Numbered from the stretch's first letter, positions 25,958-64,000 are shown. The stretch is 64,000 bases of DNA from a virus (IMGVR_UViG_3300020429_000539:108263-172262); one strand, 5' to 3'. Notes: generated by a model not told the origin, from the letters alone. Translations and numbers: made by a program.

Positions 25958-26362
25958 TTGCGTCGTCATCGCACTCTTTCCTACTACCGTCGCCCTAGAA
26001 TTCGCGGACGAGCTAAGCTAGAGGTTCGCATCAGCAGAGAAGGCAGGCACTATACTGCTGTAGGCTATGTTCGATATAGAAACAGAAGAGAAAGAATCGG
26101 CTTTATTATTGCTAGCAAAGAATCAGGTTGCAAATATTTGACCGTCGATGAAGCCCGACTCTATTTCAAATGGGTAGGCAGAGGGTATGGTCATATACTT
26201 TACTGGGCTCTTGCAAAGCAAGCGATTCGCATGGGGCTGAAAGGGCTTCGTTCAGACTCTTATGGCCGTAATGAGTGTTCAGATGGAGCATGGAGCAAAA
26301 TCCAGACTCACACGAGAGGTCAATATTCGTACCTGAAACTAGAATCACAGAGAGCAGCATAG
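25958..26362 (+). CDS. basic protein, possible GNAT-like fold (uncertain; start uncertain)
   Basis: Arg-rich N-terminus from a TTG start. 'WVGRGYGHILYWALAKQA' resembles the GNAT motif A (R/QxxGxG). Confidence 0.3.
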   Translation: MRRHRTLSYYRRPRIRGRAKLEVRISREGRHYTAVGYVRYRNRRERIGFIIASKESGCKYLTVDEARLYFKWVGRGYGHILYWALAKQAIRMGLKGLRSDSYGRNECSDGAWSKIQTHTRGQYSYLKLESQRAA

Positions 26363-27003
26363 TGGTCCCAATATTCAAGCTCGATACTGAAGAACTTTGG
26401 AAAGAGTTTCTTATCACGCGCAGCGATCGCTTGCGTGATGAGCTTGTCAAAAGGCAAATGCCTTTTGCATCTGGTATCGCTTTTCGAGTTGCTTCTACTG
26501 TTGATACTTCTATTTGCCCGCCTGAAGATATACAAGCGGCTGCGCTCGCTGCGATGATTACATGCATAGATAAGTTTGATGAGAAGGTTGGATATTCAGA
26601 AGAAATCGACCGTCGCTTTACAGGGTATGCTCGTCAGCGAATTCATTGCGCTTGTATCGATGAGTTTCGAATGCATTGTTGGATTAACCCAAGATCCAAT
26701 ATGGCAAAGAAGCATGGTATACAGCCTGTGGAGCTAAAAGAAAGGCGATGCGATACCCGACCGCTTGAAGATGCCATTGATTGTGCGGACATTTCGTGCA
26801 TTATCAGCAGCAATCAATGTCAGTTGTCTGAAGACGAACGCTTTGTTCTCAAATCGATCTATTTCCATGACATGACTCAAAATGAGATTGCTGAGATTCT
26901 TGGCCTCAATAGTACTGCTATCGGTAAACGAAAGCACGATGGCTTGAACAAAATCAGGCATTATATCGCAAAGCAAAAGCAAGATAGGTTGGTTGCCACA
27001 TGA
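26362..27003 (+). CDS. sigma-70 family RNA polymerase sigma factor (phage-encoded)
   Basis: C-terminal region 4 HTH 'MTQNEIAEILGLNSTAIGKRKHDGLNKIRHY' and region-2-like 'YARQRIHCACIDEF'. The start is set at the GTG overlapping the upstream stop (TAGTG). The ORF table extends it to 26275. Confidence 0.55.
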   Translation: MVPIFKLDTEELWKEFLITRSDRLRDELVKRQMPFASGIAFRVASTVDTSICPPEDIQAAALAAMITCIDKFDEKVGYSEEIDRRFTGYARQRIHCACIDEFRMHCWINPRSNMAKKHGIQPVELKERRCDTRPLEDAIDCADISCIISSNQCQLSEDERFVLKSIYFHDMTQNEIAEILGLNSTAIGKRKHDGLNKIRHYIAKQKQDRLVAT

Positions 27004-27626: not shown

Positions 27627-27708
27627 AAAGTTAGAGTGAATTGCCAGGCGGCGATGGTAACTTCTGTCGATACTGCTATTGAAAAGCAGCGTCTCACAGG
27701 AGTTCCCA

Positions 27709-30878: not shown

Positions 30879-31124
30879 ATGCTCAGCTTCATTCTTCTTG
30901 TCTTGTTCGGTGTTCCTGCTGTTCTTGCATGGAAAAACTACATCAAGAGAGAAACGCCAAGCCATTTGTTTATTGCGATACTGCTCTCGGCGCTCGCTGT
31001 TTTTCTGGGCTTTGCGGCGCTGACCAAACTGCTCGCAGGCACCATGATGCTCGTGGTCATCGTTTTTGGACTCGTGTTCGTGGGAACCCTTGCGGCTTAT
31101 CTCATTCATAAGGCTTACGGGTGA
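30879..31124 (+). CDS. small 2-TM membrane protein
   Basis: 'LSFILLVLFGVPAVLAW' and 'LFIAILLSALAVFLGFAAL...MMLVVIVFGLVFVGTLAAYLI'. Confidence 0.55.
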   Translation: MLSFILLVLFGVPAVLAWKNYIKRETPSHLFIAILLSALAVFLGFAALTKLLAGTMMLVVIVFGLVFVGTLAAYLIHKAYG

Positions 31125-31183
31125 AAGTCGTTTCGGCTAAGATATAGTCCAAACCTCATCACTTTCCCCAAAGGAGACGCACA

Positions 31184-47072: not shown

Positions 47073-47118
47073 CGGGTGAAAGTCGAAGCTGCTATTATAC
47101 GCTTCGCAGGAGAATCAC

Positions 47119-49883: not shown

Positions 49884-49909
49884 TTTTTGCAAACAGGAAA
49901 AGTTAGAGT

Positions 49910-49947
49910 GACCGCAACGCACCGCAACATTTCGCGATGACCGCAAC
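49910..49947 (+). repeat. three direct copies of ACCGCAAC in an intergenic region
   Basis: 'gtgACCGCAACgcACCGCAACatttcgcgatgACCGCAACaaaa', about 30 nt upstream of the ATG at 49976. Confidence 0.6.
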
Positions 49948-53539: not shown

Positions 53540-53998
53540 ATGCTAACTGCTTTTTTAGATGCAATAACTAGTTTACCACATAGGCCATTTTTGGTTGGCG
53601 GCTACATTCTTTTCTGTTGTTCTTTCACTGTACGGGTCTTTCAGTCGTGGCATCGTCACAAGTTTTCAGTGCGTCAGTGGGACTTCCATGACAAAACCAT
53701 CGTCTTCCTCGCCTGTCTCTTCAGCGTTCTGACTTTCTGTCTTCCTACGTTCTTTCTTTGCATCGAACTCTATGTTCGCAGCAAGCGTCAGAAGGTTATC
53801 GAAAAGTTTAGAGGAGCAACATCGGTTCGTGTTCCTGAGAATACAGACAGGTGGCATCATCCGTCTGGCGATGTTCGTGGTCTGTGTCCTTGGGCTATCG
53901 TGCCTGTGGGCGAGCTTGAACAGCATGGTTTCTACGTGGAGCCTCCGTCAGACCCGAGGATGATGGGTACTGTGGCTGGCACTGTTCCTGTGCGTTGA
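53540..53998 (+). CDS. membrane protein in AT-richer island
   Basis: 'FLVGGYILFCCSFTV' and 'IVFLACLFSVLTFCLPTFFLCI'. Base composition is visibly AT-richer than the flanks. Confidence 0.45.
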   Translation: MLTAFLDAITSLPHRPFLVGGYILFCCSFTVRVFQSWHRHKFSVRQWDFHDKTIVFLACLFSVLTFCLPTFFLCIELYVRSKRQKVIEKFRGATSVRVPENTDRWHHPSGDVRGLCPWAIVPVGELEQHGFYVEPPSDPRMMGTVAGTVPVR

Positions 53999-54012
53999 AC
54001 TGTAGTAAACCT

Positions 54013-54025
54013 TGCACTGATTCGG
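54013..54025 (+). repeat. 13-bp direct repeat TGCACTGATTCGG (left copy)
   Basis: Identical to 55951-55963. It lies 15 nt upstream of the ATPase ATG and is followed by the -10-like 'CGATAAT'. Confidence 0.7.
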
Positions 54026-54039
54026 TTCGATAATACGGT

Positions 54040-54741
54040 ATGAAAATACGTGGAATACATATACGTGGAAAAAACGCTCTGAGAGACGTTTCTTTGGAGT
54101 TCATGGACGATGAGTCTCGAATCCTACAACAATGCCTAATTCAGGGCTCTAATGGGTCTGGAAAGACATTCATTTTTGAATCAATAGCTCGCGGGTGGAG
54201 TTCTAGTGTTCTGGAGCGTAGTTCGAACGAGTGTGGTTTGGTTGCTGACATGGTTCGTGTGGACTACGAGTTGCCTGGTGAGATAGCTAGTGTTCATATA
54301 CGTTCTGGTCGTTTGGAGCGTAGTAGTTCTTTAGCGAAGCATGCAGATGTAGCTGTGACGGAATCTGGTGGTCATGTTCGCAGCGGCGTTGTTTTTTATG
54401 ATTTGAAACGATTGCGTTTGGTGGAGCAGACATTGGATGGTGGGAGTAGTCTTCCTACTGGGGTACAGTCTGTTCTTCCTATTCTTCACGACTTGCATGT
54501 TCGTGACATAACTGACAGCGTTGTGATGATAGATGATTGGGATTGCGGGTTAGATTCTTCTAGTTGCGCGGAATTTTATAAGCATCTGGTCCGTCACACG
54601 CATGCCAAGAATAATCAGTTGTTGTTGTCTTCGAGCGCTGAGCCGCCTGGTTACATTCCTGCTCGGAACGTCAAGCGTCTCAAAGATGGGTGCAACGTCA
54701 TCTCTGATGCTCTAGCACTGATAGGCAAAGTCCACTCATGA
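54040..54741 (+). CDS. compact ABC/RecF-like P-loop ATPase
   Basis: 'IRGIHIRGKNALRDVSLEF' (N-terminal beta-hairpin), Walker A 'LIQGSNGSGKT', signature-like 'LPTGVQSVLPIL', Walker B 'SVVMIDDWDCGLD' and H-loop-like 'LVRHTH'. Only 233 aa. Confidence 0.55.
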   Translation: MKIRGIHIRGKNALRDVSLEFMDDESRILQQCLIQGSNGSGKTFIFESIARGWSSSVLERSSNECGLVADMVRVDYELPGEIASVHIRSGRLERSSSLAKHADVAVTESGGHVRSGVVFYDLKRLRLVEQTLDGGSSLPTGVQSVLPILHDLHVRDITDSVVMIDDWDCGLDSSSCAEFYKHLVRHTHAKNNQLLLSSSAEPPGYIPARNVKRLKDGCNVISDALALIGKVHS

Positions 54742-54878
54742 AATATACGCCTGTGATTATTTGTCGTGGCTGCATGCCCAAAGGAAGCTACATCCATCAG
54801 GGCGCAAAGATGAAGATTCAATGCCTCAAATGCGGCAGAAAATGGCATGGCGAAAAGCTTGTTCGTGCTGGTAAGTAA
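54738..54878 (+). CDS. 46-aa zinc-ribbon protein
   Basis: ATGA-coupled to the ATPase. 'CRGCMPKG' ... 'CLKCGRKW'. It is not in the ORF table because it is under 60 aa. Confidence 0.4.
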   Translation: MKYTPVIICRGCMPKGSYIHQGAKMKIQCLKCGRKWHGEKLVRAGK

Positions 54879-54880
54879 AG

Positions 54881-54900
54881 TTATCCCCTTAAGGGGATAA
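54881..54900 (+). terminator. perfect 20-bp palindrome TTATCCCCTT|AAGGGGATAA (hairpin; terminator or operator)
   Basis: Exact inverted repeat lying 2 nt after the zinc-ribbon stop. There is no T-run on +, but an A-run follows, so it is equivalent to a T-run for a minus-strand transcript. Confidence 0.4.
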
Positions 54901-54942
54901 AAACTTCTTGCCAGATTTTTCAAGGAGTTTCGTTGCTGGTTT

Positions 54943-54965
54943 TTGTATTTCCAAGGGAAATACAA
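54943..54965 (+). promoter_or_regulatory. palindrome TTGTATTTCC-aag-GGAAATACAA preceded by T-run
   Basis: A 10-bp perfect stem in the 320-nt non-coding stretch of the island. Confidence 0.4.
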
Positions 54966-55221
54966 CTGCCGCTTGGTATGTGGTAGGCCTCGTGCGTTCG
55001 GGTTGGCAACAGCTATTTGAACCGCTTGTGTTTTGTTAGGCGTTGTAAACTTAGGCACCCTTCAAATCCTATGTGGGACTTGGTTAGTTTCTTGCACTGC
55101 GCGGGAAAGTTTATATTCTATGTGAAAGCTAGCACTGATAGGTTAAATCTTCTAGCACTGATTAGTAAACTGTATGTGTTAGGGCTTGTATATAGTGGCA
55201 TAGCTTTTGCTAGCTAGTTTG

Positions 55222-55932
55222 CTATGTGCTGAATCGTTCTAATTCTCGTCGTCTGTCTATATAGTATGTGTCAGCTTCTTCTGACTTGTGAGCTATGATT
55301 TTCCAGGGTAGTCCCCAGTGAAGTCGGAGAAGGTTCTCAACGAGTCGTGACGTAGCACTGTTTCCGTCTTCGAATGGTCGGATGGCGAAGAGTTCGAGGC
55401 TGAGCTTCTTGCACTGATTGGCAAGTTCGCCTCCTTCTTCTTGGCTATACATTCCGTACTCGATGGTATCTATGTTGTCTTTTTCAACTTTTACTGCGCG
55501 ATTAATCCAGTTGCAGAGTAGTTCGGGAACATCGAATGGATTGGGTGCCTGGAAGTTTCCGTAGGCGGAGCGATGGATGTAGTCTTGTGTTCTGAAGACG
55601 CCGATGTCTGACGGATGTATGAGGGTGCTGTCTTCTGCCACGAGTCCGAGTTCGGCGATGGGTCTCATGATGTTTCGGTGGAGGCGCTTGAGCCATCCGA
55701 GCGAGTTGTCGAGTTGGAATCGATTTGGGCACTCGATGAGGAGGTTCTCGTCTTCGGCGAGTTGCATGACGAGGGTGATGGCGCGGAGATGACCTGCGAC
55801 GTATGGGTCGCTGTCTGTCTTGCCGAGAGTTTTTTCAATCTTTGACCTGTCCATTGGGATACGGTCGAGCCGGTGGGTATGATAGATGTAAGCTATCAGG
55901 GTATCCTGGTCGGGTTCGGGAAAAGTTCTCAT
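55222..55932 (-). CDS. Fic/Doc-family protein with degenerate active-site motif
   Basis: 'FAIRPFEDGNSATSRLVENLL' aligns to the Fic motif HPFx[DE]GNGRxxR with His->Arg and GNGR->GNSA, so it is probably non-canonical or inactive. Helical content is appropriate for the Fic fold. It is the only minus-strand gene in the region. Confidence 0.5.
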   Translation of the reverse strand: MRTFPEPDQDTLIAYIYHTHRLDRIPMDRSKIEKTLGKTDSDPYVAGHLRAITLVMQLAEDENLLIECPNRFQLDNSLGWLKRLHRNIMRPIAELGLVAEDSTLIHPSDIGVFRTQDYIHRSAYGNFQAPNPFDVPELLCNWINRAVKVEKDNIDTIEYGMYSQEEGGELANQCKKLSLELFAIRPFEDGNSATSRLVENLLRLHWGLPWKIIAHKSEEADTYYIDRRRELERFST

Positions 55933-55950
55933 ACACGCATTATCGGTTCA

Positions 55951-55963
55951 TGCACTGATTCGG
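55951..55963 (+). repeat. 13-bp direct repeat TGCACTGATTCGG (right copy) followed by tandem GGATGAACG x2
   Basis: Identical to 54013-54025. It sits just upstream (on the minus strand) of the Fic-like start, separated from it by an 'ATTATCG' (= CGATAAT on the coding strand). Confidence 0.7.
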
Positions 55964-56028
55964 ATGAACGGATGAACGTATGCGCGGGAGTCAGTCGGGA
56001 CATCGTGCGATACCGAACGGTCTGCAAA

Positions 56029-56090
56029 AAGATGGGTGCAAGGGTGGACGCCTTGCGAGTGAAGACTTACACTTGTAAGATGGGTGCAAG
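56029..56090 (+). promoter_or_regulatory. two direct copies of AAGATGGGTGCAAG 48 bp apart
   Basis: Copies at 56029-56042 and 56077-56090. The same 14-16-mer recurs at 61105-61120. GCGAGTGAAGA also repeats at 56055 and 56152. The pseudo-ORF 55873-56175 translates this region as '..KKMGARVD..CKMGARGFS..'. Confidence 0.55.
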
Positions 56091-56191
56091 GGGATTCTCG
56101 GACCTTGGATCGCCAAAAAGTTCCGCGACTTGGATTCTGGGGCTCAGGCTGGCGAGTGAAGAAAGTTTCAAGTGAAATGGAGGCTGCGATA

Positions 56192-57052
56192 ATGGGCAAC
56201 AGAAACCGAGTCGGCGCACGGAAGGGTCGCCGATGCAGACCTACAGGAATCGGTATGCCCATCAAAAAAGGCGAACTCAACTGCGAGACGTACTATGCGC
56301 ACGCAAAGGAAGCGGACGCTCCTGCGAAGCAGCGACCTGAGTCTGTGGTTGCCCGTCACGGCGGCAAGCAGAAGATTCGTCGTCACCACCTGACGCGAGC
56401 GCAGATGGACAGCCTCATGGAGGCTATGAAGCAGCAAAACAGATGGTTGTGTCCGTTCAATCCGCCCAAGGCGTATTGGGGCCTCGTGGAGGCTCTCTAC
56501 CAGTTGGGTCCGAACAAGCGACATCTCTTCGGCGCGGTCTACGCAAAGATGCAGGAGATCATGTCGAAGGACGAGTATCGAGATGCCGCAGGACGGACGG
56601 CCTGGGAGAAGTTCGAGGGCAAGTCGAACCGCTCGCCATCAACGGGCAAGGACGCCTTTGACCGCATCATGCAGAACATCCGTGTTCTTCAGCGTCTCGG
56701 CGGAGCCAACCCGTATGGGCTGAAGCTGGCCCAGGTCGGCGCGTGCATCAACGTCTACGGCACGAAGAGCAAGCCCTACGTCGAGCTTCAGATTGGGATT
56801 CGTTCAGGCGAAGATGTTGCTCCTGTCAATGAGGCTCGTGAGCGGAACTATCCGAAGAGCATTTCTGCCGTCTCTTCAGGTTTCATGCCTGGCGACGAAA
56901 CGTATGTGGTTGACTGGTTGAGCTTGGACAAGCTCGCTGCGCCTTCGACTCTGGCGGACGCGGTGGCCGAGGCCGAGCAGGATGTTGATGGCCTTGTTCC
57001 CGTGCGGGACATCGGCGATCCTATTCCTGTGCGCGAAAATGACGCGACCTAA
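56192..57052 (+). CDS. hypothetical protein (286 aa)
   Basis: GGAGG lies 8 nt upstream of the ATG at 56192. The ORF-table start at 56084 is a GTG inside the repeat region. Confidence 0.55.
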   Translation: MGNRNRVGARKGRRCRPTGIGMPIKKGELNCETYYAHAKEADAPAKQRPESVVARHGGKQKIRRHHLTRAQMDSLMEAMKQQNRWLCPFNPPKAYWGLVEALYQLGPNKRHLFGAVYAKMQEIMSKDEYRDAAGRTAWEKFEGKSNRSPSTGKDAFDRIMQNIRVLQRLGGANPYGLKLAQVGACINVYGTKSKPYVELQIGIRSGEDVAPVNEARERNYPKSISAVSSGFMPGDETYVVDWLSLDKLAAPSTLADAVAEAEQDVDGLVPVRDIGDPIPVRENDAT

Positions 57053-57070
57053 CGGACTGCGAACTGCTTT

Positions 57071-57082
57071 CCACATACGATT
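57071..57082 (+). promoter_or_regulatory. CCACATACGATT promoter-like element (copy 1)
   Basis: About 77 nt upstream of the ATG at 57148. The flanking 'CGGACTGCGAACT...CCACATACGATTCGG' resembles copy 4. Confidence 0.5.
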
Positions 57083-57147
57083 CGGCTACGCTATCGAGGG
57101 CTGTTGTCTGAGACGCAACAGAAACCCTCAACCCTTGGAGTCGAATC

Positions 57148-58551
57148 ATGCCGAAGAAGACCGCGAAGAAGACGGCCCGTAGGACGGGCACTCCCGACCG
57201 CATCCAGTTTGTGGCTCCGACCACGCCCAACGACCACCTGATTCGTGACGCGATCAAGGTGTTCAATCTCTCGGGCTCGGATGACGGTCCCCAGATTCTT
57301 GGCCTCTTGCAGCAGCATCGTCAGAACATCGACACGATCGTTGATGATGCTGAGCGCGTGTCGCTGTGTGCGGAGAAGGGGTGGGACGAGCCGACCGAAG
57401 CCGAGCGCGTCGCCATCATCCATGACTTTATCAAGTCGTCGGGCGAGAAGAGCGAGAGCGAGTGGGTTTCGTGTCTGTCGCCTGACCGTCAGCGCGTGGT
57501 GGACCTGCCCAAGTACTTCCGCCTGCGCCGTCAGCGCCTCAACGAGCAGATTCGCCAGATTCGGCGGAAGATGCGCGAGGCCGAGAAGAAAATGTCGCGC
57601 GAGATGGACGCGCATCAGAGCCAGATCGAGGGCAATCCTCTGTCGGTTTCGTGGGCGGCTGCGCTCGATGATGACGCGCATGTTCCGATTGAGCGTGTGC
57701 CGACCGGCGACCCGTTGCTCGATGATTGGTTCGGCTTCAACCTCTTGGAGGATGGGACCAAAGAGGGCGGCATGACGATGGGGCATACGTACCTTGTCGG
57801 TGCGGAGCGCGGCATGGGCAAGACTCGTTGGCTTGTCGAGATGTGCGGTCGCCTCTGTGGTCCGCGTCAAATCGACTACATGGGCCGCGAGTTTGGTGGT
57901 CTGCGTGGCCTTTATATCCAAGGCGAAGAGACGCCCCAGCGGTTTGCCAAGATGTTCGCGAGCAAGGTCTGGCGTCCCGATGTTCACGACGTACATCTGT
58001 CGGATACGGCTGTGTTCATGCAGCAGCACGAATCGCTTATCCGTCAGTTGCGCCCGCAACTTATCATCATCGACTCGAAGGACATGATGAAGGATTGGCG
58101 TCATCCGCGCGACGCGGAGAACGCGGTCAAGCTCTACAACCATTGGGCCGAGAAGTACGGCTTCATTCTCTTTATCATTTCGCATGTCAATGCGAAGGGC
58201 GAGATCAAGGGCGGCACGAATCTGCCTCACATGGTTCGTGCGGTTATCAAGGGCTACCGCGACCAGCACGACCCCAACTCGTTCCACCTGCTCATGGATA
58301 AGAACCGTGGTTCGCAGGCGAATAAGACTGTTCGTTGGCGGCACGGCGAGGATACGGTTCATCTTGTGGACCCGAAGAAGGGTCATACGGTGGTCCGCAC
58401 CGAGTTGTCTCCCGATATGGCGGTCCTCTCGGACGCTGTTGATGAGGCGACGGCGCGGCCCGTGTCGTCTGCGATGCTCGACGCTGTTGAGGCGGCGGAG
58501 CGTGGGGACGCTGTTGAACCTGCTAGGTTGGACGACGACTCCGAGGGTTGA
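57148..58551 (+). CDS. DnaB/RecA-superfamily ATPase (helicase-like, AAA_25-type)
   Basis: Walker A 'LVGAERGMGKTRWLVEM', Walker B 'QLIIIDSKD' and 'LFIISHVNAKGEIKGGT' give the RecA-like core in the C-terminal half. 467 aa. Confidence 0.55.
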   Translation: MPKKTAKKTARRTGTPDRIQFVAPTTPNDHLIRDAIKVFNLSGSDDGPQILGLLQQHRQNIDTIVDDAERVSLCAEKGWDEPTEAERVAIIHDFIKSSGEKSESEWVSCLSPDRQRVVDLPKYFRLRRQRLNEQIRQIRRKMREAEKKMSREMDAHQSQIEGNPLSVSWAAALDDDAHVPIERVPTGDPLLDDWFGFNLLEDGTKEGGMTMGHTYLVGAERGMGKTRWLVEMCGRLCGPRQIDYMGREFGGLRGLYIQGEETPQRFAKMFASKVWRPDVHDVHLSDTAVFMQQHESLIRQLRPQLIIIDSKDMMKDWRHPRDAENAVKLYNHWAEKYGFILFIISHVNAKGEIKGGTNLPHMVRAVIKGYRDQHDPNSFHLLMDKNRGSQANKTVRWRHGEDTVHLVDPKKGHTVVRTELSPDMAVLSDAVDEATARPVSSAMLDAVEAAERGDAVEPARLDDDSEG

Positions 58552-58576
58552 TGCGTCTCAGGCACTCCCTCGTTCG

Positions 58577-58610
58577 GGCCTCTCCCTCGGCATGGGGAGG
58601 GGCCTTTTTC
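58577..58610 (+). terminator. intrinsic terminator
   Basis: 'GGCCTCTCCC-tcggcat-GGGGAGGGGCC' followed by TTTTT. Confidence 0.6.
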
Positions 58611-58630
58611 TGTGCGCGAAATTTTGCTAG

Positions 58631-58642
58631 CCACATAGCATT
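58631..58642 (+). promoter_or_regulatory. CCACATAGCATT promoter-like element (copy 2) with downstream extended -10-like TGGTATACT
   Basis: 100 nt upstream of the ATG at 58731. 'TGGTATACT' is at 58653-58661. Confidence 0.5.
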
Positions 58643-58730
58643 TGCTGCTGGCGTGGTATACTGACAACGGCGACAGAGGCGAGCGCCTCGGCCTAGTTCA
58701 TGGTTCATCCCTCTCACGGAAGGAAATGGC

Positions 58731-60026
58731 ATGACGACGATGGTGGAAACGATGGAAGAGGGCTCGGCTGCGGTCGAGCGGTTTGTCAGCGACGAGCGCG
58801 GCTTCAACAGCGACACCGAGGACAAGGTTGTGTCTCGGATGCGGAGCCCGACCGACGCGCTGATGCAGCTTCGTCGCGAGGGGACCGGGCGGTTCGACCT
58901 CGCGGTGGACGACGCGAACCTCCTGAATCTGGAGGCGAGCGACGACGGAACGATCACGATGGCCCCGACGATGCGGCTCGCGGACACGAGCGCGTCTGGC
59001 GCTTCGCTGGCTGCCGACCTCGACAAGCGTGGGTTTATCCCCGTGGACCCGAGCGCGGTCAACCAGCTTTGCTCTCTCATGGGCATCGCGGGCGGTTGGA
59101 AGACCTACCAGAAGCGCTCGCGTCCGGCGCAGTCGTTCATGCGAGACGTGCGCGACACGTTCGGCGGCAAGAGCGGCGCGACGAAGTTTGTCGTTCGCAC
59201 GACGGGCGACGGCTTCGGCAATCATCGCGTGGAAGCGTTCTTCGACGCCAACGCCGAGCGTCCCGATTCGGGCCGCGTGGTCGGCGGTATCTTCCGCGCC
59301 ATCCTTGAGAAGTATGGGGATGTGATTCGCGGCGTGGAGATGATTCGCCAAGTCAACACCGGCGTCGGCTCGATGCGCATTCTCTTCGGCGACCCCGTTC
59401 TGCGCGAGCGGACGAGCGACCCGATGAAGCGCATCTATCCGATGATGGACCTCTTCATGTCCGACCGTGGCAACGTCACGCCCGAAGCGTCGTTGGGCCT
59501 GTGGCGTCTGTGGTGTCTCAACGGATGTACCTCCAAGGATTTCGCGCTGGCGCGGCTCCGCATGGATTCCGAGGGCGGCATGGATGCGTTCATCGAGGGC
59601 GCGGGCAAGCTCGTCAACGCGGCGATTCCGTTCGCCCACGCCATCGCCACGCGGCTCGATGGACTCCAGGACCGCCCGCTCGCCAAGAGCGCGAAGGATA
59701 CCATCGACCTCATCGAGGCCCGTGGGCATATCTCCAAGGGCTTCGCGGAGGATCTTGACCGCTACCGCACGATGGGTCGCGAGGGCGAGGTTGAGACCGA
59801 GTGGGGCATGTTCAACCTCTTTACCGATGCGGCGAGGATGCGTGGGTCGGTCGCCTCTCGGCGTGGGGTCGAGAACAAGGGCCTTCAGTTTGCCCTTGCC
59901 GATGGTGGGTTCAGCGGCGTGGCCGATAGCGGCTTCAACCGCTCCCAGTTTGCTCGCCAGATGAAGGGTATCTGGGAGGACGCTGGGCTTGAGATTCCGA
60001 CCAAGGCTCAGGCGCGGCTCAACTAA
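58731..60026 (+). CDS. hypothetical protein (431 aa)
   Basis: Well-balanced composition and an SD 'GGAAGGAAA'. The long antisense ORF 58698-60044 is R/A/H-rich junk. Confidence 0.55.
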   Translation: MTTMVETMEEGSAAVERFVSDERGFNSDTEDKVVSRMRSPTDALMQLRREGTGRFDLAVDDANLLNLEASDDGTITMAPTMRLADTSASGASLAADLDKRGFIPVDPSAVNQLCSLMGIAGGWKTYQKRSRPAQSFMRDVRDTFGGKSGATKFVVRTTGDGFGNHRVEAFFDANAERPDSGRVVGGIFRAILEKYGDVIRGVEMIRQVNTGVGSMRILFGDPVLRERTSDPMKRIYPMMDLFMSDRGNVTPEASLGLWRLWCLNGCTSKDFALARLRMDSEGGMDAFIEGAGKLVNAAIPFAHAIATRLDGLQDRPLAKSAKDTIDLIEARGHISKGFAEDLDRYRTMGREGEVETEWGMFNLFTDAARMRGSVASRRGVENKGLQFALADGGFSGVADSGFNRSQFARQMKGIWEDAGLEIPTKAQARLN

Positions 60027-60049
60027 TCGGGCACCCCTAACCAACTCCC

Positions 60050-60081
60050 AACGCCCTACCTATTTGGTGGGGCGTTTTTTA
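60050..60081 (+). terminator. intrinsic terminator
   Basis: 'CGCCCTACC-tattt-GGTGGGGCG' followed by TTTTTT. Confidence 0.55.
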
Positions 60082-60112
60082 TTTAAGGGCAAAATTTGAT
60101 TGAACAACTAGA

Positions 60113-60124
60113 AGCCACATAGGA
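60113..60124 (+). promoter_or_regulatory. CCACATAGGATA promoter-like element (copy 3), followed by structured leader
   Basis: 100 nt upstream of the ATG at 60213. The leader contains 'GGGAGCCAAC-aacgta-GTTGGCCTCCC' and a 'GGTTGTCAACC' palindrome. Confidence 0.5.
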
Positions 60125-60212
60125 TAACCTGTTGAGCCCGTAGGTTGTCAACCGAGGGAGCCAACAACGTAGTTGGCCTCCCGAGCAGAACCTTTTAGCC
60201 AAGGAGAACAAA

Positions 60213-60920
60213 ATGGCGAAGGGCACGAACAAGGGCAACGGCAACACCGTTGCGGAACTCATCGCGGCGGCGTCCGGCACGGTCAATGCTCAGCAGACCG
60301 CGCTCTTGGAGGCTCGCCAGAACCTCATCGGCGAGGCCGAGCAGGCCGCGCAGTCGGCGGCGAACAGCGTCGCGGACATCAACAGGCAGATCGCGGAAAT
60401 CGACCAGACCCTCACGGGCACCCTCGGCTTCAGCGGCGACCTCGGCACGCCCGACCTCTCGCCGCTCAACAGCATCGTGGGCACGCGGCCCGCCGCGAAG
60501 CGCCAGCGGCGTTCGTCCAGCGGCTCCGCGTCCAACGGCGGCACGCGCGGCTCGAAGCCGATGCCGATGGCCGACGCGATCTGCATCGCCCTCTGCCGCC
60601 TCGACGCCGGCCCCGACAGCGAGGGCGTGGACCCCGATGCGGTGTTGGCCGAGGTCACGGGCGCTCCCATCCACTACCCGCTCAGCGGCAACGCCGAGAA
60701 CCACCCCAACATCATCTCCCAGAACCTCAGCCGCGTCAAGGGCGAGGGGTGGGTCGAGCAGGTTCCCCAGGAGGGCCGCAAGCGTGGCCTCCCCTACCGC
60801 CTGACCACCGATGGCATGACCTGGGTCCAGCAGAACGCGGGCACCCTCATCCAGCCGTCGCGCCGCACGGACGAGTGGGTCGAGAACCCCGGCGCGGAAA
60901 CCGAGTCCGACGAGGGCTAA
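60213..60920 (+). CDS. hypothetical protein, coiled-coil N-terminus and winged-helix-like C-terminus
   Basis: SD 'AAGGAG'. N-terminal Ala/Gln coiled-coil pattern. C-terminal 'IISQNLSRVKGEGWVEQ...GRKRGLPYRLT' resembles a wHTH recognition helix plus wing. The alternative frames 60173-61072 and 60250-60804 are Arg/Pro junk. Confidence 0.5.
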   Translation: MAKGTNKGNGNTVAELIAAASGTVNAQQTALLEARQNLIGEAEQAAQSAANSVADINRQIAEIDQTLTGTLGFSGDLGTPDLSPLNSIVGTRPAAKRQRRSSSGSASNGGTRGSKPMPMADAICIALCRLDAGPDSEGVDPDAVLAEVTGAPIHYPLSGNAENHPNIISQNLSRVKGEGWVEQVPQEGRKRGLPYRLTTDGMTWVQQNAGTLIQPSRRTDEWVENPGAETESDEG

Positions 60921-60953
60921 TCACAGCCTCGTCCGCCTCTCTCAAATCAAAGC

Positions 60954-60990
60954 AGCGCCCTCTCCTGAGGGAGGGGGCGTTGTTTCCTTG
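60954..60990 (+). terminator. intrinsic terminator (first of a tandem pair)
   Basis: 'CGCCCTCTCC-tga-GGGAGGGGGCG' followed by a T-rich run. Confidence 0.55.
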
Positions 60991-61010
60991 GCACGATGCT
61001 GAGGTTGACG

Positions 61011-61040
61011 AGGACGCGCCTTCGGGCGCGTTCTTTTCTT
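61011..61040 (+). terminator. intrinsic terminator (second of the pair)
   Basis: 'GACGCGCC-ttcg-GGCGCGT' perfect stem with a tetraloop, followed by 'TCTTTTCTT'. Confidence 0.6.
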
Positions 61041-61104
61041 GCGCGAAATGTGGAGAACTCCGCCCACGATGACCGATTCGAGAACATCTAGGGGGAGGCC
61101 AATC

Positions 61105-61150
61105 AAAAGATGGGTGCAAGAGGCGGACTCCGTGACTCCACATACGATTG
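61105..61150 (+). promoter_or_regulatory. composite upstream element: AAAAGATGGGTGCAAG + CGGACTCCGTGACTCCACATACGATT (copy 4)
   Basis: The 16-mer is identical to 56027-56042. The CCACATACGATT core is 66 nt upstream of the ATG at 61204. Confidence 0.55.
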
Positions 61151-61203
61151 CTCGGTGAAATCGGAAACTGTCAGCAACGATCCCCAACGACTAGGAGCCG
61201 AAC

Positions 61204-62778
61204 ATGCCGAGCGTGACAGTCCCCAAGCAGTTCTACATCGACGAGCGGGTCCGCCTCTACCCTGATTGGCAGGCTGATTTCTGGCGCGAGTTCGGACAGA
61301 ACAGCCGCGACGCCCGTGCCAGCGTTATCGACTTCCGCGTCGAGCCTGCTGAAACCGGCTGCGTCTGCACGGTCGAGGACAACGGCTGCGGGATGTCTCG
61401 CGAGGTCTTGGAGGATGTCTACTTCGCGCTCGGCAAGACGACCAAGACGGGCGAGGGCAACGTGGGCGGCTTCGGTCGCGCTCGCATCCTGACATGCTTC
61501 TCGCACAAAAGCTACCGCATCAACACAGGCACCTTGCAGGTTGATGGCGACGGCGGCAACTACGATATCATCGAAGCCGACTATCAGCGCGGCTGCAAGG
61601 TCACGGTCGAGGTCGATGATGCCTCTCGCGAGCAGATGCTCGCCAAGCTCAAAGAGTACCTTGCATACTGCCAGTTCGGCGATATCACGGTTAGGGTCAA
61701 CGGATTCTCCTTTACCGACTGGCTTTACAAGCGCAACAAGATTCGTGACCTGTCCTTTGCTTCGGTCCATGTCAACAAGAGCGGTCGCCAGCATCGCGTC
61801 GTGTTCCGCGTCAACGGGCAGTACATGTTCTCTCGTTATACCGATGCTGCTGCACAGGTCGTTGTCGAGATCCACAGCGACAAGAGTCGTGAGGTTCTCT
61901 CTGCAACTCGTGGTGGTCTGATGGGGAAGTATCAAGAGGAACTTGATAAGTTCCTCGCCGAACTCTCCGTCGATACTCGAAGCGCTCTTCGTCCTCGCGT
62001 GGACAACTCTCGTTTGGTTCGCAGCGACGGTGGATGGCTCGCGTCGGTTCGCAAGACGAAGCAGGCACCTGTTGAAGCCGATGCCGCTCAGGGTCGCGAG
62101 AAGGTTGCGCAGACTCCGCGAGAGAATGTTACGACGACAACAGACGACCGCGCGACTGTTCTCGGAGGCGCTGCTGCCTTCAGCGGTGGCAAGACCCAGA
62201 TGCTTCAGGAGCGGCCCGAGTGGGGAGTGCCTGTCGATGAGCGTCCTCGCTTCATCGCGCCCAACCTTTTCAACGTCTACATCAAGGACGAAACGGGCGA
62301 CCCCAAGATGAAGCGCGTCATCGATCAGTATGACCCGAAGAACTGGGTTCATACCGAGCAAGTTCTCAAGGGCCAGACTCGTCATTACCGCAAGGGGGCT
62401 GAGCATCTGAAGCTGCTGATGGCGTGGAAGCTCTGCTGCGAGGAAGCCATCAACGTGCTGATGGAGCGGCGTGGATACGACAACATCGTGTGGACGGCTG
62501 GTTGGCTGTTCTCCCCGTATGCTGAGGCGATGCATACGGTCGTGGACGGCACGGCTCACGCGCTGCTGCTCAACCCGGTCACGGGCGATGGACGCAAGCG
62601 ATACACCCTCAAGCGAGAAACGGTTCTCGAACTGTTGGCGCTCGCGGCGCACGAGGTTGCACACGTAACAGTCCCGCTCCACAACGAGGAGTACGCCAAT
62701 CTGCTGACCGACATCCAGCGGCGGCTCGATCAGAACTCGGTTTGGCGTCGCGTCCGGACCGAGGTCAAGGGGCTCTGA
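61204..62778 (+). CDS. GHKL-superfamily (histidine-kinase/Hsp90/MutL-type) ATPase
   Basis: N-box 'EFGQNSRDA', G1 'VEDNGCGMS' and G2 'VGGFGRARIL' form the Bergerat fold in the N-terminal 110 aa, with a long unknown C-terminal region. 524 aa. Confidence 0.6.
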   Translation: MPSVTVPKQFYIDERVRLYPDWQADFWREFGQNSRDARASVIDFRVEPAETGCVCTVEDNGCGMSREVLEDVYFALGKTTKTGEGNVGGFGRARILTCFSHKSYRINTGTLQVDGDGGNYDIIEADYQRGCKVTVEVDDASREQMLAKLKEYLAYCQFGDITVRVNGFSFTDWLYKRNKIRDLSFASVHVNKSGRQHRVVFRVNGQYMFSRYTDAAAQVVVEIHSDKSREVLSATRGGLMGKYQEELDKFLAELSVDTRSALRPRVDNSRLVRSDGGWLASVRKTKQAPVEADAAQGREKVAQTPRENVTTTTDDRATVLGGAAAFSGGKTQMLQERPEWGVPVDERPRFIAPNLFNVYIKDETGDPKMKRVIDQYDPKNWVHTEQVLKGQTRHYRKGAEHLKLLMAWKLCCEEAINVLMERRGYDNIVWTAGWLFSPYAEAMHTVVDGTAHALLLNPVTGDGRKRYTLKRETVLELLALAAHEVAHVTVPLHNEEYANLLTDIQRRLDQNSVWRRVRTEVKGL

Positions 62779-62913
62779 AAGTTGTCCACATTTTTTGCTC
62801 CTTTGGCCTAGGTCGGTTGCCAACATGAAAAGATTTTGATAGACTCGCGACGCGACGGAAAAACTCGACAAAACGGGAAAAGTACCAGGACATAAGAAAG
62901 TGGGGTTCCAAGG

Positions 62914-63444
62914 ATGACAAAACAGACACCACTTCAATCCCTGGTCGATATCAACTCTTCTGAGTTCGATACCGACCTGGGACAGTACCACGAAGTCTTG
63001 CGCCAGAGGAAGGCGGAGTTCGTGGGTTGGGTTCGTAATCAGGTTAGCGCACGAATCACGACGATGCGAGAAGGCAAGGCACGCGACAATGTTGTGGACT
63101 TTGAGACCCGCAACTGTCTAACGTTTGAGCTTGACTTCTGGGCAGGTCGTTGGTTCAAGATGTACGGCAAAGATAACCGCCCGCCCGAAGCCCACATCCG
63201 TCATCTCGAACAGAAGTTCGCAGGCATGTTTGATGATGATGATGATGAAGTCAACATCGAAGCCGCACCTGGTCTTCCGCTGCTGCATAAAGCCGTGATG
63301 GACCAGGATTTAGAAGAAGTCAAGCGCCTCATCGAGAAGGGCGCTGAGATCACTCGTAAGGATAATGGTGGGCGAACAGCCCACGAACGCGCTGAAGCGA
63401 TGGGGTTCGATAACATCGCCGAATTCCTGGCTGGCGTGGCCTAG
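62914..63444 (+). CDS. hypothetical protein with ankyrin-repeat-like C-terminus
   Basis: 'PLLHKAVMDQDLEEVKRLIEKGAEITRKDNGGRTAHERAEAMG' is an ANK-like helix-turn-helix repeat. The stop overlaps the palindrome GGCCTAGGCC. Confidence 0.45.
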   Translation: MTKQTPLQSLVDINSSEFDTDLGQYHEVLRQRKAEFVGWVRNQVSARITTMREGKARDNVVDFETRNCLTFELDFWAGRWFKMYGKDNRPPEAHIRHLEQKFAGMFDDDDDEVNIEAAPGLPLLHKAVMDQDLEEVKRLIEKGAEITRKDNGGRTAHERAEAMGFDNIAEFLAGVA

Positions 63445-63578: not shown

Positions 63579-64000
63579 ATGACCCTGAATATCACATCAC
63601 CGTGCCCTTTCGTCCTTGAGGCTCCTCGCGACGGAGCCGCCCACAAAATTGCCCAACTGCACAGGTACGCTCAGGAATCTGCTTTTCCCAAACTGACAGA
63701 GTTGATCCATCTGAGCGAAGATGGGTGCAATATCAACGGAGACGATGACCCTCTCGAACTGATGAAGCTCTATGCCAAGGGGCTTGCGCTCGATGAGGGC
63801 AAAGTCTACGCCGTCACACCTGATGAGCTTTGGGCATTTGGGGCGCAGCTTCCGAATGGCAGAATCGGCATCTTTGGCCTCGCAGTGTATCCCGAGATGG
63901 TCGAGACAAAGGATGGTCCTCGACAGACGCCTTGGAATGAGATTGCTCATTGGTCGGGCTCTGTTTGCGTGTGTGCAACAGATCAAACCGGACACTCTGT
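63579..64000 (+). CDS. hypothetical protein, 5' partial (runs off window end)
   Basis: An uninterrupted frame from the ATG at 63579 to the window end, with GC-rich third positions like neighbouring + genes ('MTLNITSPCPFVLEAPRDGAAHKIAQLHRYAQESAFPKLTELIHLSEDGCNING...'). It is not in the ORF table because it has no in-window stop. Confidence 0.4.
   Translation, partial: MTLNITSPCPFVLEAPRDGAAHKIAQLHRYAQESAFPKLTELIHLSEDGCNINGDDDPLELMKLYAKGLALDEGKVYAVTPDELWAFGAQLPNGRIGIFGLAVYPEMVETKDGPRQTPWNEIAHWSGSVCVCATDQTGHS

Follow-up and report, generated by a model that had tools for sequence, protein, structure and literature searches.

Background

Late promoters of phage T4 depend on the sigma factor gp55 and carry TATAAATA at -10. 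Lambdoid phages contain morons, that is, genes with their own promoter and terminator and a deviant base composition. Among bacterial sigma factors, FliA (sigma-28) has the consensus TAAA-N15-GCCGATAA, and the -10 element of Bacillus sigma-E/K reads CATAcanT. In jumbo phages endowed with their own RNA polymerases, a conserved, phage-specific motif of about 10 nt is found near -10 before early operons (PMC7598289), and for MotA boxes the distance to the -10 element is 12 +/- 1 bp (PMC2988021). The strategy of using phage-specific promoters together with terminators is itself familiar. What is known of uncultivated huge phages is almost entirely their gene content, rather than how it is transcribed.

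We analyzed a 64,000-nt stretch of DNA, called the window in what follows, from an uncultivated marine genome of about 0.48 to 0.50 Mb which is probably that of a huge phage. A first-pass annotation had pointed to an element, CCACATA(C/G)GAT, repeated ahead of four consecutive genes. This box has a non-random, regional placement in intergenic DNA after terminators; its positions are kept in five lineages, its sequence changes in concert between them, and it has no partner at a fixed distance.

Distribution of the box

Box 1 (57071..57081, plus strand) reads CCACATACGAT; 19 nt separate it from the stop codon of the preceding gene, and its distance to the gene 1 ATG is 77 nt. Box 2 (58631..58641, plus strand), CCACATAGCAT, has one mismatch, and lies 20 nt after a terminator T-run, its distance to the gene 2 ATG being 100 nt. 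Box 3 (60115..60125, plus strand), CCACATAGGAT, precedes the ATG of gene 3 by 98 nt, and box 4 (61138..61148, plus strand), again CCACATACGAT, that of gene 4 by 66 nt, with a further motif, AGATGGGTGCAAG, 30 nt upstream of the box. The first-pass annotation had the four start codons right (57148, 58731, 60213 and 61204), as well as the distance separating them from the element (65 to 100 nt, against 66 to 100 nt here) and three of the positions (57071, 58631 and 61138); the third copy is at 60115, not 60113.

Other copies are found outside this series. A minus-strand box, CCACATAGGAT at 55066..55076, belongs to a cluster of minus-strand CACATA boxes (the others at 54977-54983, 55118-55124, 55172-55178, 55222-55228 and 55264-55270) situated downstream of a minus-strand Fic-like gene, with a hairpin at 54881-54900; within the window, no ORF follows the boxes of this cluster. 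An antisense box, CCACATACGTT, is present at 56899..56909 (minus strand) within the 3' part of a 286-aa gene, 162 nt from box 1 and oriented away from it. Finally, a weak variant, CCACAT(TTTTTG), occurs at 62786..62791 (plus strand) immediately 3' of the gene 4 stop codon; it is conserved in the related locus L006, and its role is uncertain.

Allowing at most one mismatch, CCACATASGAT has 6 matches in the window versus 1.16 expected, a count reached in 0 of 100 shuffles. The same motif has 9 matches in locus L001 versus 0.46 expected, and exact CCACATA is present there in 13 copies versus 2.6 expected, 11 of which are intergenic, compared with 26% of the L001 DNA. The motif frequency is thus far above chance in the two sequences, and its placement is biased to intergenic DNA. 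Within the window, 8 of the 9 exact CCACATA copies fall between 53576 and 61144, that is, in the last 10.5 kb, and the motif runs on for at least 6 kb past the window end, where it is also found ahead of tRNA genes and of an RNA unit lacking an ORF. A chance origin of the boxes is ruled out by the shuffles together with the conservation at orthologous sites described below.

Genes and terminators

All four genes are on the plus strand. Gene 1 (57148..58551) encodes a 467-aa AAA_25 / RecA-DnaB-like ATPase, gene 2 (58731..60026) a 431-aa protein of no known family, gene 3 (60213..60920) a 235-aa protein with a weak MarR-like winged-helix signal at its C-terminus, and gene 4 (61204..62778) a 524-aa HATPase_c_3 (GHKL ATPase) protein. 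The gene 2 product is represented by only 5 protein clusters among 5.8 billion proteins, and had no match in IMG/VR. The leader of gene 3 contains a covarying hairpin.

Intrinsic terminators, all on the plus strand, follow gene 1 (58576..58610; hairpin 58576-58605, -23.6 kcal/mol, z -2.9), gene 2 (60050..60082; hairpin 60050-60076, -20.6 kcal/mol, z -6.2) and gene 3, which has two of them (60950..60990, hairpin 60950-60985, -28.0 kcal/mol, z -5.2; and 61012..61039, hairpin 61012-61031, -21.3 kcal/mol, z -4.5), as does its orthologue in L004. A GC-rich hairpin followed by a T-run, past a stop codon, is present at all four sites, and all four fold strongly, in agreement with the terminators first proposed at 58577, 60050, 60954 and 61011. 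The statement that each of the four genes is followed by a terminator holds for genes 1 to 3 and fails for gene 4, where the region 62775-62830 folds worse than its own shuffles; nor was a terminator found ahead of box 1. The genes are nevertheless largely one-gene units bounded by terminators, as first described, and the remainder of the window was correctly described as coupled operons: from 8 to 53 kb, closely spaced genes on the plus strand leave few gaps. The GC content of the accessory block is 8 to 12 points higher than that of the neighboring region.

The box may lie only 4 nt (L001, 21061), 7 nt (L005, 20378) or 20 nt (window, 58631) from a terminator T-run, so that no room is left for any other promoter. 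Six units have a box-to-ATG distance of only 23 to 33 nt, which excludes a -35 position of the box in these units. Some units have no ORF: in L006 (12375-12580), a box is followed by about 190 nt without an ORF and then by a terminator, and the L001 equivalent (19775-20292) contains three tRNA-like genes in addition. Being placed ahead of ORF-less RNA and tRNA units, the box should act in transcription or in RNA, and not in translation. Apart from the tRNAs, no Rfam family matched the approximately 185-nt non-coding RNA or the rest of the region.

A PADLOC search revealed no complete known defence system, the matches being a PtuA-like N-terminus in an AAA_21 protein and weak Fic matches. No close relative of the block was found among GenBank phages, and a host search against GTDB representative genomes gave marginal matches only. 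The only matches came from an AAA ATPase of another part of the window, and were to an uncultured phage of 595 kb and to the jumbo phages phiRSL1 and BCSR5. The strong Shine-Dalgarno sequences, noticed by eye, suggest a host that uses such sequences.

Concerted change across lineages

In four diverged syntenic lineages, the box is found at the same intergenic positions, its sequence being altered in concert from CCACATAC to (A)TTCACATGC to TCACCGAA. The CCACATA form is that of the window, L006 and L014-18, the (A)TTCACATGC form that of L004 and L019, and the TCACCGAA form that of L005, L009 and L020. In a de novo search, (A)TTCACATGC came out as the most over-represented 8-10-mer of L019. L004 contains 10 copies of TTCACATG in 20.1 kb, versus 0.6 expected, and L008, a locus from the same sample that covers the sigma region, has 0 copies in 20.7 kb.

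Taking the boxes one by one, the orthologue of box 1 is CCACATACGAT in L006 and L014-18, ATTCACATGCTAG in L004, TTCACATGCGGT in L019 and TTCACCGAATAG in L005. Orthologues of box 2 are present at 8657 in L004, 5868 in L019 and 10084 in L005, and also in L009, and those of box 3 at 10211, 7394 and 11634 in L004, L019 and L005, respectively. The two-motif arrangement of box 4 and its upstream AGATGGGTGCAAG recurs in L006, L004, L019 and L005, and minus-strand clusters equivalent to that of the window are found in L006 and L014-18, in L004 (5184-5313) and in L019 (2404-2536). The box-to-ATG distances vary little: for the window, L006, L004 and L005 in this order, they are 77, 77, 75 and 68 nt for gene 1, 100, 100, 104 and 89 nt for gene 2, 98, 101, 101 and 96 nt for gene 3, and 66, 66, 60 and 48 nt for gene 4. 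The position of the box is therefore conserved across five lineages, which bears out a check suggested at the outset. Given that the accessory block is syntenic in all five, it is ancestral and not recently acquired.

Relatives with 87 to 89% identity show what is retained at closer range. In these, the box stands out as an identical stretch next to an upstream flank with indels and substitutions. The extended context of about 35 nt reported for copies 1 and 4 does exist in the window, but it is deleted or diverged in these relatives, which places the constraint on the box alone. The antisense box occupies the same protein-alignment columns (237-241) in the window, L006, L004 and L019, and is present as each lineage's own version (ATCACATGC in L004 and L019) in spite of differing amino acids, ETYVV versus GLHVI; the L005 counterpart, GCACCGAA, is 7 alignment columns away. 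The three tRNA-like genes mentioned above, directly downstream of a box, are an indel between L001 and L006.

Search for partner elements

No second conserved element was found at a fixed distance upstream or downstream of the box in any lineage, and box-anchored alignments in three lineages (15, 10 and 19 boxes) revealed no conserved position outside the box. Nor is a TTGACA-like hexamer conserved at 16 to 18 bp from it. TAnnnT is enriched about two-fold 18 to 28 nt downstream of 40 boxes, the histogram of offsets having no sharp peak. One short conserved box without a partner is the arrangement of a single-element (-10-only) promoter.

The first-pass annotation saw no likeness to a sigma-70 -35/-10 pair. 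This holds only in part: TA(C/G)GAT in the window box fits the TAnnnT pattern of the sigma-70 -10 element, but the L004 and L019 boxes, which have TGCnnn with a variable last base, do not. The L004/L019 box (TTCACATGC) has no A(-11)/T(-7), the pattern to be expected in a -10 hexamer of the sigma-70 family, which makes it uncertain whether the box corresponds to -10. Sigma-70-like promoters do occur in the same region. A TTGCCA-17-TAGACT promoter precedes the ankyrin-repeat gene at 62914-63444, and an extended -10-like element, TGGTATACT (58654..58662, plus strand), lies downstream of box 2; identical in the window, L006, L004 and L019, and 26 to 27 nt past the box start, it is possibly a second, host-type promoter of gene 2. 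Their coexistence with the box argues that the latter is a separate class.

Several other candidates were rejected. AGATGGGTGCAAG and the box, considered as the two parts of a sigma-54 (-24/-12) or ECF-type promoter, are separated by 21, 25, 30 or 36 nt depending on the copy and lineage, so that the two do not form a bipartite promoter. Likeness to the DnaA box (TTATCCACA), judged by eye, amounts to only 6 or 7 of 9 positions in sequence flanking individual copies, and is lost in relatives. The Bacillus sigma-E/K -10 element fits CATA(C/G)GAT of the window but not the boxes of the sister lineages.

The sigma factor gene

The window encodes its own sigma factor, as first annotated, at 26362..27003 (plus strand; Sigma70_r4 3.7e-9, PHROG sigma factor 5.9e-12), so that this feature of a phage-sigma promoter class is present. 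The product has Sigma70_r4/r2 domains, and its FliA/WhiG-like match is under all family cut-offs. An orthologue (P0016, 47%) with syntenic neighbors is carried by a second contig from the L004 sample. The gene is 30 kb from the boxes, in a box-free region, and the case for its product as the factor reading the box is circumstantial. Compared with the sigma-28 -10 element, the best copies offer CGAT(T/A) or CCGAA, the invariant core of the box being CAC(AT)(A/G)C, and box-anchored alignments showed neither a TAAA 15 bp upstream nor any other upstream conservation. The full consensus is matched just by CGA(T/A) in the best copies, a point against the interpretation proposed below.

Discussion

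From these sequence comparisons, we consider the box to be almost certainly part of a special kind of promoter, and probably the core sequence by which a distinct class of promoters, of a single-element, -10-region type, is recognized; its reader would be a lineage-specific factor, for which the phage sigma is a candidate. The box, a single asymmetric element of 8 to 12 bp (CCACATA(C/G)GAT here, YYCACATRCGAT across the nearer relatives), would work as a -10-region-only promoter: RNA polymerase with a lineage-specific specificity factor would bind it, transcription would start a few nucleotides downstream, and the units, short and mostly of one gene, would end at strong intrinsic terminators. 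A start about 5 to 10 nt past the box would be compatible with even the shortest box-to-ATG distances, of 23 to 33 nt. Most economically, the factor would be a phage-encoded sigma, the candidate being the FliA/WhiG-like one. In addition to the accessory genes 1 to 4, the class may drive tRNA genes, the approximately 185-nt non-coding RNA and, near the Fic-like gene, a number of antisense or orphan transcripts. We infer the promoter role and the placement near -10, as we do the protein that would read the box and the time at which it would be active. The promoter already proposed in the first-pass annotation is thus strongly supported, on comparative grounds, by a box that is intergenic, follows terminators, is conserved and co-changing, precedes tRNA and non-coding RNA units and stands apart from the sigma-70 class, its 35-nt context being the part that is not conserved. 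Several minus-strand boxes without a downstream gene speak against a promoter.

The box might be read instead by a phage-encoded non-sigma-70 RNA polymerase, for example a virion multisubunit enzyme as in phiKZ, the sigma of the window being uninvolved. The size, single element and lineage specificity of the box match the early motifs of jumbo phages (PMC7598289), and the L004/L019 box has no sigma-70-type -10 signature. However, phiKZ-type motifs are AT-rich and the box is about 45 to 55% GC, no beta/beta'-like genes were found in the window or in the fetched loci, a search that covered about 15% of the 477-kb genome, and a genome with a sigma gene can be taken to use the host core polymerase for at least one gene class. 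We find this proposal improbable. Alternatively, the box could be a -30/-35 site, for sigma region 4 or for a monomeric activator comparable to the one binding the T4 MotA box, completed by a weak host-type -10 downstream. The element TGGTATACT of gene 2, at its nearly constant offset in four loci, the enrichment of TAnnnT and the presence in the L004/L019 box of TTCACA, a 5/6 match to TTGACA, all point that way. Yet the spacing to candidate -10 elements varies from 14 to 22 nt, contrary to the strict one of MotA boxes (PMC2988021), a good -10 exists for gene 2 only, and most units have no -10-like hexamer where one is required; moreover, in the six units with the shortest leaders, a start located some 35 nt past the box would already be within the ORF. 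We therefore find such an upstream site doubtful.

Two further possibilities remove the box from promoter function altogether. If it acted in RNA at the transcript 5' end, as a processing site or as the site of an RNA-binding regulator, its strand specificity, its location in would-be 5' leaders, the conservation of sequences downstream of it and the covarying hairpin of the gene 3 leader would be accounted for. This is very unlikely, as the box is often 4 to 20 nt past a strong terminator, where an upstream promoter would not fit, as neither a common secondary structure nor flanking conservation surrounds it, and as it is also found antisense within a coding region. Boxes might also be protein-binding sites for a process other than transcription, be it as iterons of a replication origin, as partition sites or as PeSL-like recombination hot-spots. 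Around the Fic-like gene, 3 to 6 dense minus-strand boxes are interleaved with the repeats GCACTGAT(T/A)GG and AGATGGGTGCAAG, the box cluster adjoins the RecA/DnaB-like ATPase gene, and the tRNA-like indel between L001 and L006, right after a box, recalls PeSL-bounded indels (PMC4122927). Most boxes, however, are single and lie at a conserved distance before individual genes, each after a terminator, and the shared sequence is 8 to 12 nt compared with the longer composite repeats of PeSL recombination; such a process is hardly to be expected here.

Returning to a promoter class read by a lineage-specific factor, a more specific version of it would be that the phage's own, highly diverged FliA-like sigma reads the box without the A(-11)/T(-7) logic, and that sigma and box co-evolved via at least three specificities (CCACATAC, TTCACATGC and TCACCGAA). 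We regard this as a speculation with some, albeit limited, chance of being right. If true, one family of marine phages with genomes of about 0.5 Mb would contain a series of sigma/promoter pairs that arose in nature and are orthogonal to one another. These would control an accessory island made up of one-gene cassettes, of tRNAs, non-coding RNAs and antisense transcripts. With a box that has switched in concert between sister lineages, the co-evolution of a promoter and the factor recognizing it can be put to the test, and orthogonal promoter/sigma pairs might be obtained from the box series. Given a lineage-specific box, one could also recognize transcription units, non-coding RNAs and what is probably a temporal or functional class of genes straight from metagenomic sequence, and the box marks an accessory island that would be regulated apart from the tightly packed operons.

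Among known systems, the T4 late, gp55-type promoters are similar in having one short box without a -35 partner, an own sigma gene and a class apart from host-type promoters; here, in contrast, the box sequence is unrelated and not AT-rich, a sister clade lacks TA...T, and the sigma is only a candidate reader. The early promoters of phiKZ and AR9 (PMC7598289) share a conserved motif of about 10 nt, present before a subset of operons and varying from phage to phage; size and lineage specificity fit, but theirs is an AT-rich -10 motif used by a virion RNA polymerase, whereas our box is not AT-rich and the loci examined contain a sigma gene and no such polymerase. To AACA-N6-TW, the late motif of AR9, the box bears only a superficial likeness: CACA-N6 fits, and the last two positions do not. 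With FliA/WhiG (sigma-28) promoters, the resemblance lies in the window sigma, closest to this branch, and in the CGAT(T/A) ends and the L005 CCGAA, which recall the CGA core; the differences lie in the absence of a TAAA at a fixed distance and in the invariant part of the box, CAC(AT) and not GCCGA. A MotA-type site would be a box at -30 with a strong -10 at constant spacing, unlike what is found here.

Closer in organization are the PeSL cassettes of the hyperplastic regions of T4-like phages (PMC2839356, PMC4122927), in which accessory genes without an assigned function likewise lie each between a promoter and a stem-loop terminator, are grouped in a single variable region and differ between close relatives by gene-content indels. 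A stem-loop terminator followed by a putative promoter does flank the accessory ORFs of the variable region here. PeSLs, however, contain sigma-70 early promoters and longer recombination repeats, and in our locus the units share neither a sigma-70 consensus nor a long, near-identical intergenic word, just a non-sigma-70 box of 8 to 12 nt. Lambdoid morons, finally, are comparable as autonomous one-gene units with a terminator and, here, a GC content 8 to 12 points over that of their neighbors; unlike morons, the present block is ancestral, being syntenic in five lineages, and its putative promoter belongs to a phage-specific class rather than to the host type.

Distribution of the box in the window

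The observation of the first-pass annotation, a short element of the type CCACATA(C/G)GAT (hereafter the box) ahead of consecutive genes separated by intrinsic terminators, is confirmed with minor corrections. All four copies are present, starting at 57071, 58631, 60115 (not 60113, as had been given) and 61138, before the genes for an AAA_25 ATPase (gene 1, 57148..58551), a 431-aa protein (gene 2, 58731..60026), a 235-aa winged-helix-like protein (gene 3, 60213..60920) and an HATPase_c_3 protein (gene 4, 61204..62778). The second copy is a box, but has GCAT in place of SGAT. The proposed start codons recur in independent gene calls on public contigs, and box-to-ATG distances are 77, 100, 98 and 66 nt. 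Four strong hairpins with T-runs are found, but one terminator per gene does not hold: gene 3 has two and gene 4 none. Elsewhere, in line with the operon character that had been described, plus-strand genes follow one another almost without gaps from about 8 to 53 kb.

The motif is more frequent than chance would predict. With at most one mismatch, CCACATASGAT gave 6 matches in the window against 1.16 expected, a number reached in 0 of 100 shuffles; the minus strand carries the two matches (55066 and 56899) not accounted for by genes 1 to 4. Eight of the nine exact CCACATA copies in the window fall within 53576-61144. In L001, the window's own locus taken past the window end (window positions 48731-70026), the 11-mer box has 9 matches against 0.46 expected, and exact CCACATA is intergenic in 11 of 13 copies, the intergenic share of this locus being 26%.

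Conservation in related lineages

The gene 2 family is tiny, with five protein clusters in a set of 5.8 billion proteins, and syntenic loci were obtained from the contigs of its members and from one metagenome scan. Gene 2 products are 87-89% identical to that of the window in L006, L007 and L014-L018, 47% in L004, 43% in L019, and 38-39% in L005, L009-L011 and L020. Gene order is common to all loci: AAA_21 ATPase, minus-strand Fic-like gene, a gene for a 250-286-aa protein, AAA_25 ATPase, 431-aa protein, 203-238-aa protein and HATPase_c_3. In the 87-89% group, CCACATA stands at every orthologous intergenic site; the extended context of about 35 nt that had been proposed around it is not conserved, since the upstream flanks in this group carry indels and substitutions.

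L004 contains zero copies of CCACATA. Its box has the form ATTCACATGC (the sequence of this lineage is also given as TTCACATGC), found at the four orthologous sites and six more. These 20 kb thus contain 10 copies where 0.6 would be expected, and 9 of the 10 are intergenic. In L019, a word count free of any prior returned TCACATGC and its extensions as the most over-represented 8-10-mers, again with copies at the four orthologous sites, and in L005, L009 and L020 the form is TCACCGAA(A/T). Each lineage is enriched in its own variant only. Box-to-ATG distances are kept gene by gene across lineages, and so are the terminators, the pair that follows gene 3 among them.

The regional restriction of the box is also conserved between the window and L004 lineages. 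The region of the window sigma factor gene (26362-27003, plus strand) has zero CCACATA boxes. The L004 lineage has an orthologue of this sigma, P0016 (47% identity), encoded on another contig from the JGI sample that gave L004. The surroundings of P0016, locus L008, are syntenic with 18-30 kb of the window, and the 20.7 kb of L008 contain zero TTCACATG.

One box is antisense, at 56899-56909 on the minus strand, inside the 3' part of the 286-aa gene (56192-57052). It occupies identical protein-alignment columns in the window, L006, L004 and L019, each with its lineage's own variant and with differing amino acids, which indicates that the DNA motif itself would be under selection; in L005 the variant is 7 columns off. 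This suggests a conserved antisense promoter directed at the Fic-like gene.

Units with tRNAs and non-coding RNA

Further boxes in L001 lie at 15407 (ATG 32 nt downstream), at 19775, between tRNA-Met and a UCA-anticodon tRNA, at 20326, past a terminator (ATG 88 nt downstream), and at 21061, 4 nt past a terminator T-run (ATG 33 nt downstream). In L006, about 190 nt devoid of any ORF separate the box at 12375 from a strong terminator; the L001 counterpart of this unit has three tRNA-like genes in addition. Such ORF-less and tRNA units are evidence that the element would act in transcription and not in translation. The box-to-terminator unit encodes a conserved putative non-coding RNA of about 185 nt (L001 20107-20292; L006 12392-12582) that matches no Rfam family and shows compensatory changes in 8 of 44 predicted pairs, two sequences being compared.

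The tRNA arrays occupy L001 17791-18384 and 19568-20106 (window-equivalent 66.5-68.8 kb). Five tRNA-Leu genes covering every Leu anticodon family are followed by tRNA-Val, tRNA-Met, the UCA-anticodon tRNA, a tRNA bearing an insertion, and a weak tRNA-like sequence. ARAGORN labels the UCA-anticodon tRNA as SeC; it is potentially an opal suppressor. The 56-nt insertion, in the anticodon region, is a possible intron. The last three tRNA-like genes are missing from the 89% relative L006.

Anatomy of the element and candidate factors that may read it

Box-anchored alignments in three lineages (15, 10 and 19 copies) confine the information to 8-12 positions, with no conserved element at a fixed distance up- or downstream. 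Among 40 boxes, TAnnnT offsets reflect the internal TA(C/G)GAT of the window lineage and a diffuse, about 2-fold excess 18-28 nt downstream, which comes largely from orthologous, non-independent sites. Boxes lie as near as 4-20 nt past a terminator T-run, with the ATG as near as 23-33 nt. Together with the missing fixed-distance partner, this spacing argues against a -35-type site or an upstream site of the MotA type as defined previously (PMC2988021), and a single element near the transcription start is favoured. The region has sigma-70-like promoters as well: TTGCCA-17-TAGACT with a TG precedes the ankyrin-repeat gene 62914-63444, and TGGTATACT, downstream of box 2, is identical in four lineages. 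The box would therefore be a class apart, and not a host housekeeping promoter. Comparative genomics gives the promoter reading good support.

The question arises as to which factor recognizes it. As all copies changed together between lineages, a trans-acting factor that differs between lineages is required; candidates are a sigma or polymerase encoded by the phage, and the factor of a different host. The window sigma has regions 2 and 4 and is nearest to FliA/WhiG sigmas, below all family cut-offs. The core of the sigma-28 -10 element is CGA, and at the end of the best box copies stands CGAT(T/A), or CCGAA in L005. The invariant part of the box is, however, CAC(AT)(A/G)C, and a TAAA partner is absent from the box-anchored alignments, so that this likeness is a lead only. 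We infer, as the first-pass annotation had proposed, that the window sigma may read the box and that the promoters may be of a middle or late class. The main rival as to the enzyme is an RNA polymerase of the phage's own. Jumbo phages that have one carry phage-specific early-promoter motifs of about 10 nt near -10 (PMC7598289), much like the box in size and lineage specificity, but no RNA polymerase gene was seen in the roughly 15% of the genome covered.

Other motifs in the region

Besides the box, the region contains AGATGGGTGCAAG, TGCGCGAAA and GCACTGAT. The most repeated 12/13-mer of the window, AAGATGGGTGCAA(G), occurs five times, in each case on the plus strand and within the final 10 kb (54684-54695, 56030-56041, 56078-56089, 61108-61119 and 63719-63730), and another at L001 19754. 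Ahead of the 286-aa gene it stands in two or three tandem copies; at gene 4 and at the tRNA/ncRNA unit one copy is placed 21-36 nt before the CACAT box, and two copies are within ORFs. It covaries with lineage (AGATCGGTGCAAG in L004 and L019, AGATGGGTG(T/A)A in L005), and might serve as an operator or define another class of promoter.

TGCGCGAAA lies between terminator and box (57030-57038, 58613-58621, 61040-61048), its equivalent in L005, L009 and L019 being the palindrome (TT)CCGCGG(AA). Anything from 4 to 88 nt separates it from the box, which points to an independent site, possibly bound by a regulator. The repeat GCACTGAT(T/A)GG, which becomes CACTGAATGGG in L004, L005 and L019, spans 54008-55960 (for example 54012, 54716, 55131, 55153, 55410 and 55951) and interleaves with a minus-strand CACATA cluster in the non-coding DNA around the Fic-like gene. 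No ORF lies downstream of the boxes of this cluster, which could be an orphan ncRNA unit reaching the hairpin at 54881-54900, or an origin-like region.

In the 5' leader of gene 3 (60126-60212), TGTCAAC is invariant and precedes a hairpin whose loop, AA(C/T)GT(A/C)G, is conserved. Across six sequences from five lineages, 5 of 9 stem pairs are altered on both sides, and a regulatory RNA structure before the winged-helix gene is likely. Two further intergenic pairs belong to the operon part: GGGTGAAAGTCG, followed by an AT-rich, -10-like stretch (31119-31130 and 47074-47085), and AAAAGTTAGAGTGA (27626-27639 and 49898-49911; ACAGTGAAT or AGAGTGAAT in L008). They may represent additional promoter or regulatory classes.

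Genomic setting

An identical 431-aa gene 2 product is encoded by contigs from TARA Oceans, Logan, JGI (the longest reaching 502 kb) and an ENA metagenome (477,468 bp). The complete contigs are ENA ERZ840537 NODE_2, the JGI versions of 488,051 and 502,023 bp, and NCBI WGS MDTA01. The window has no structural genes. It does encode functions of the huge-phage type (DNA methyltransferases, dCMP deaminase, NUDIX, MazG-like, RtcB, glutamine synthetase, sigma factor), and one of its AAA ATPases has matches in an uncultured phage of 595 kb and in the jumbo phages phiRSL1 and BCSR5; we therefore treat the source as a probable huge phage.

At 56 kb, GC content climbs from about 0.47 to roughly 0.60. 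In every lineage, the four-gene block (window about 56000-62800, L004 6000-12000, L005 8000-13000) exceeds the DNA upstream of it by 8-12 GC points (in the window, 0.59-0.65 against about 0.47), so that the step goes back to the ancestor of the family rather than to a recent acquisition.

Putative defence or conflict genes occur here: an AAA_21/ABC ATPase (54040-54741) with a PtuA-like N-terminus (3e-10), the Fic-domain protein (55222-55932, minus strand) and the GHKL (HATPase_c_3) ATPase (61204-62778). No complete known defence system was recognized around 54040-62778. Separately, the L004-lineage orthologue of the window AAA_28 protein (L008 1459-3102) has Hom_end_hint and LAGLIDADG domains, and thus probably contains an insertion, either an intein or a homing endonuclease.

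Comparison with known systems

Box and terminators are predicted to work as a class of single-element promoters specific to the phage, paired with intrinsic terminators. The PeSL cassettes of T4-like hyperplastic regions are similar, in that terminator-promoter units there likewise bracket accessory genes (PMC2839356, PMC4122927); PeSL cassettes, however, have a sigma-70 consensus and longer repeats, and the boxes described here have neither. Elements of this kind are already known; the motif sequence and the series of lineage variants appear not to have been described before.
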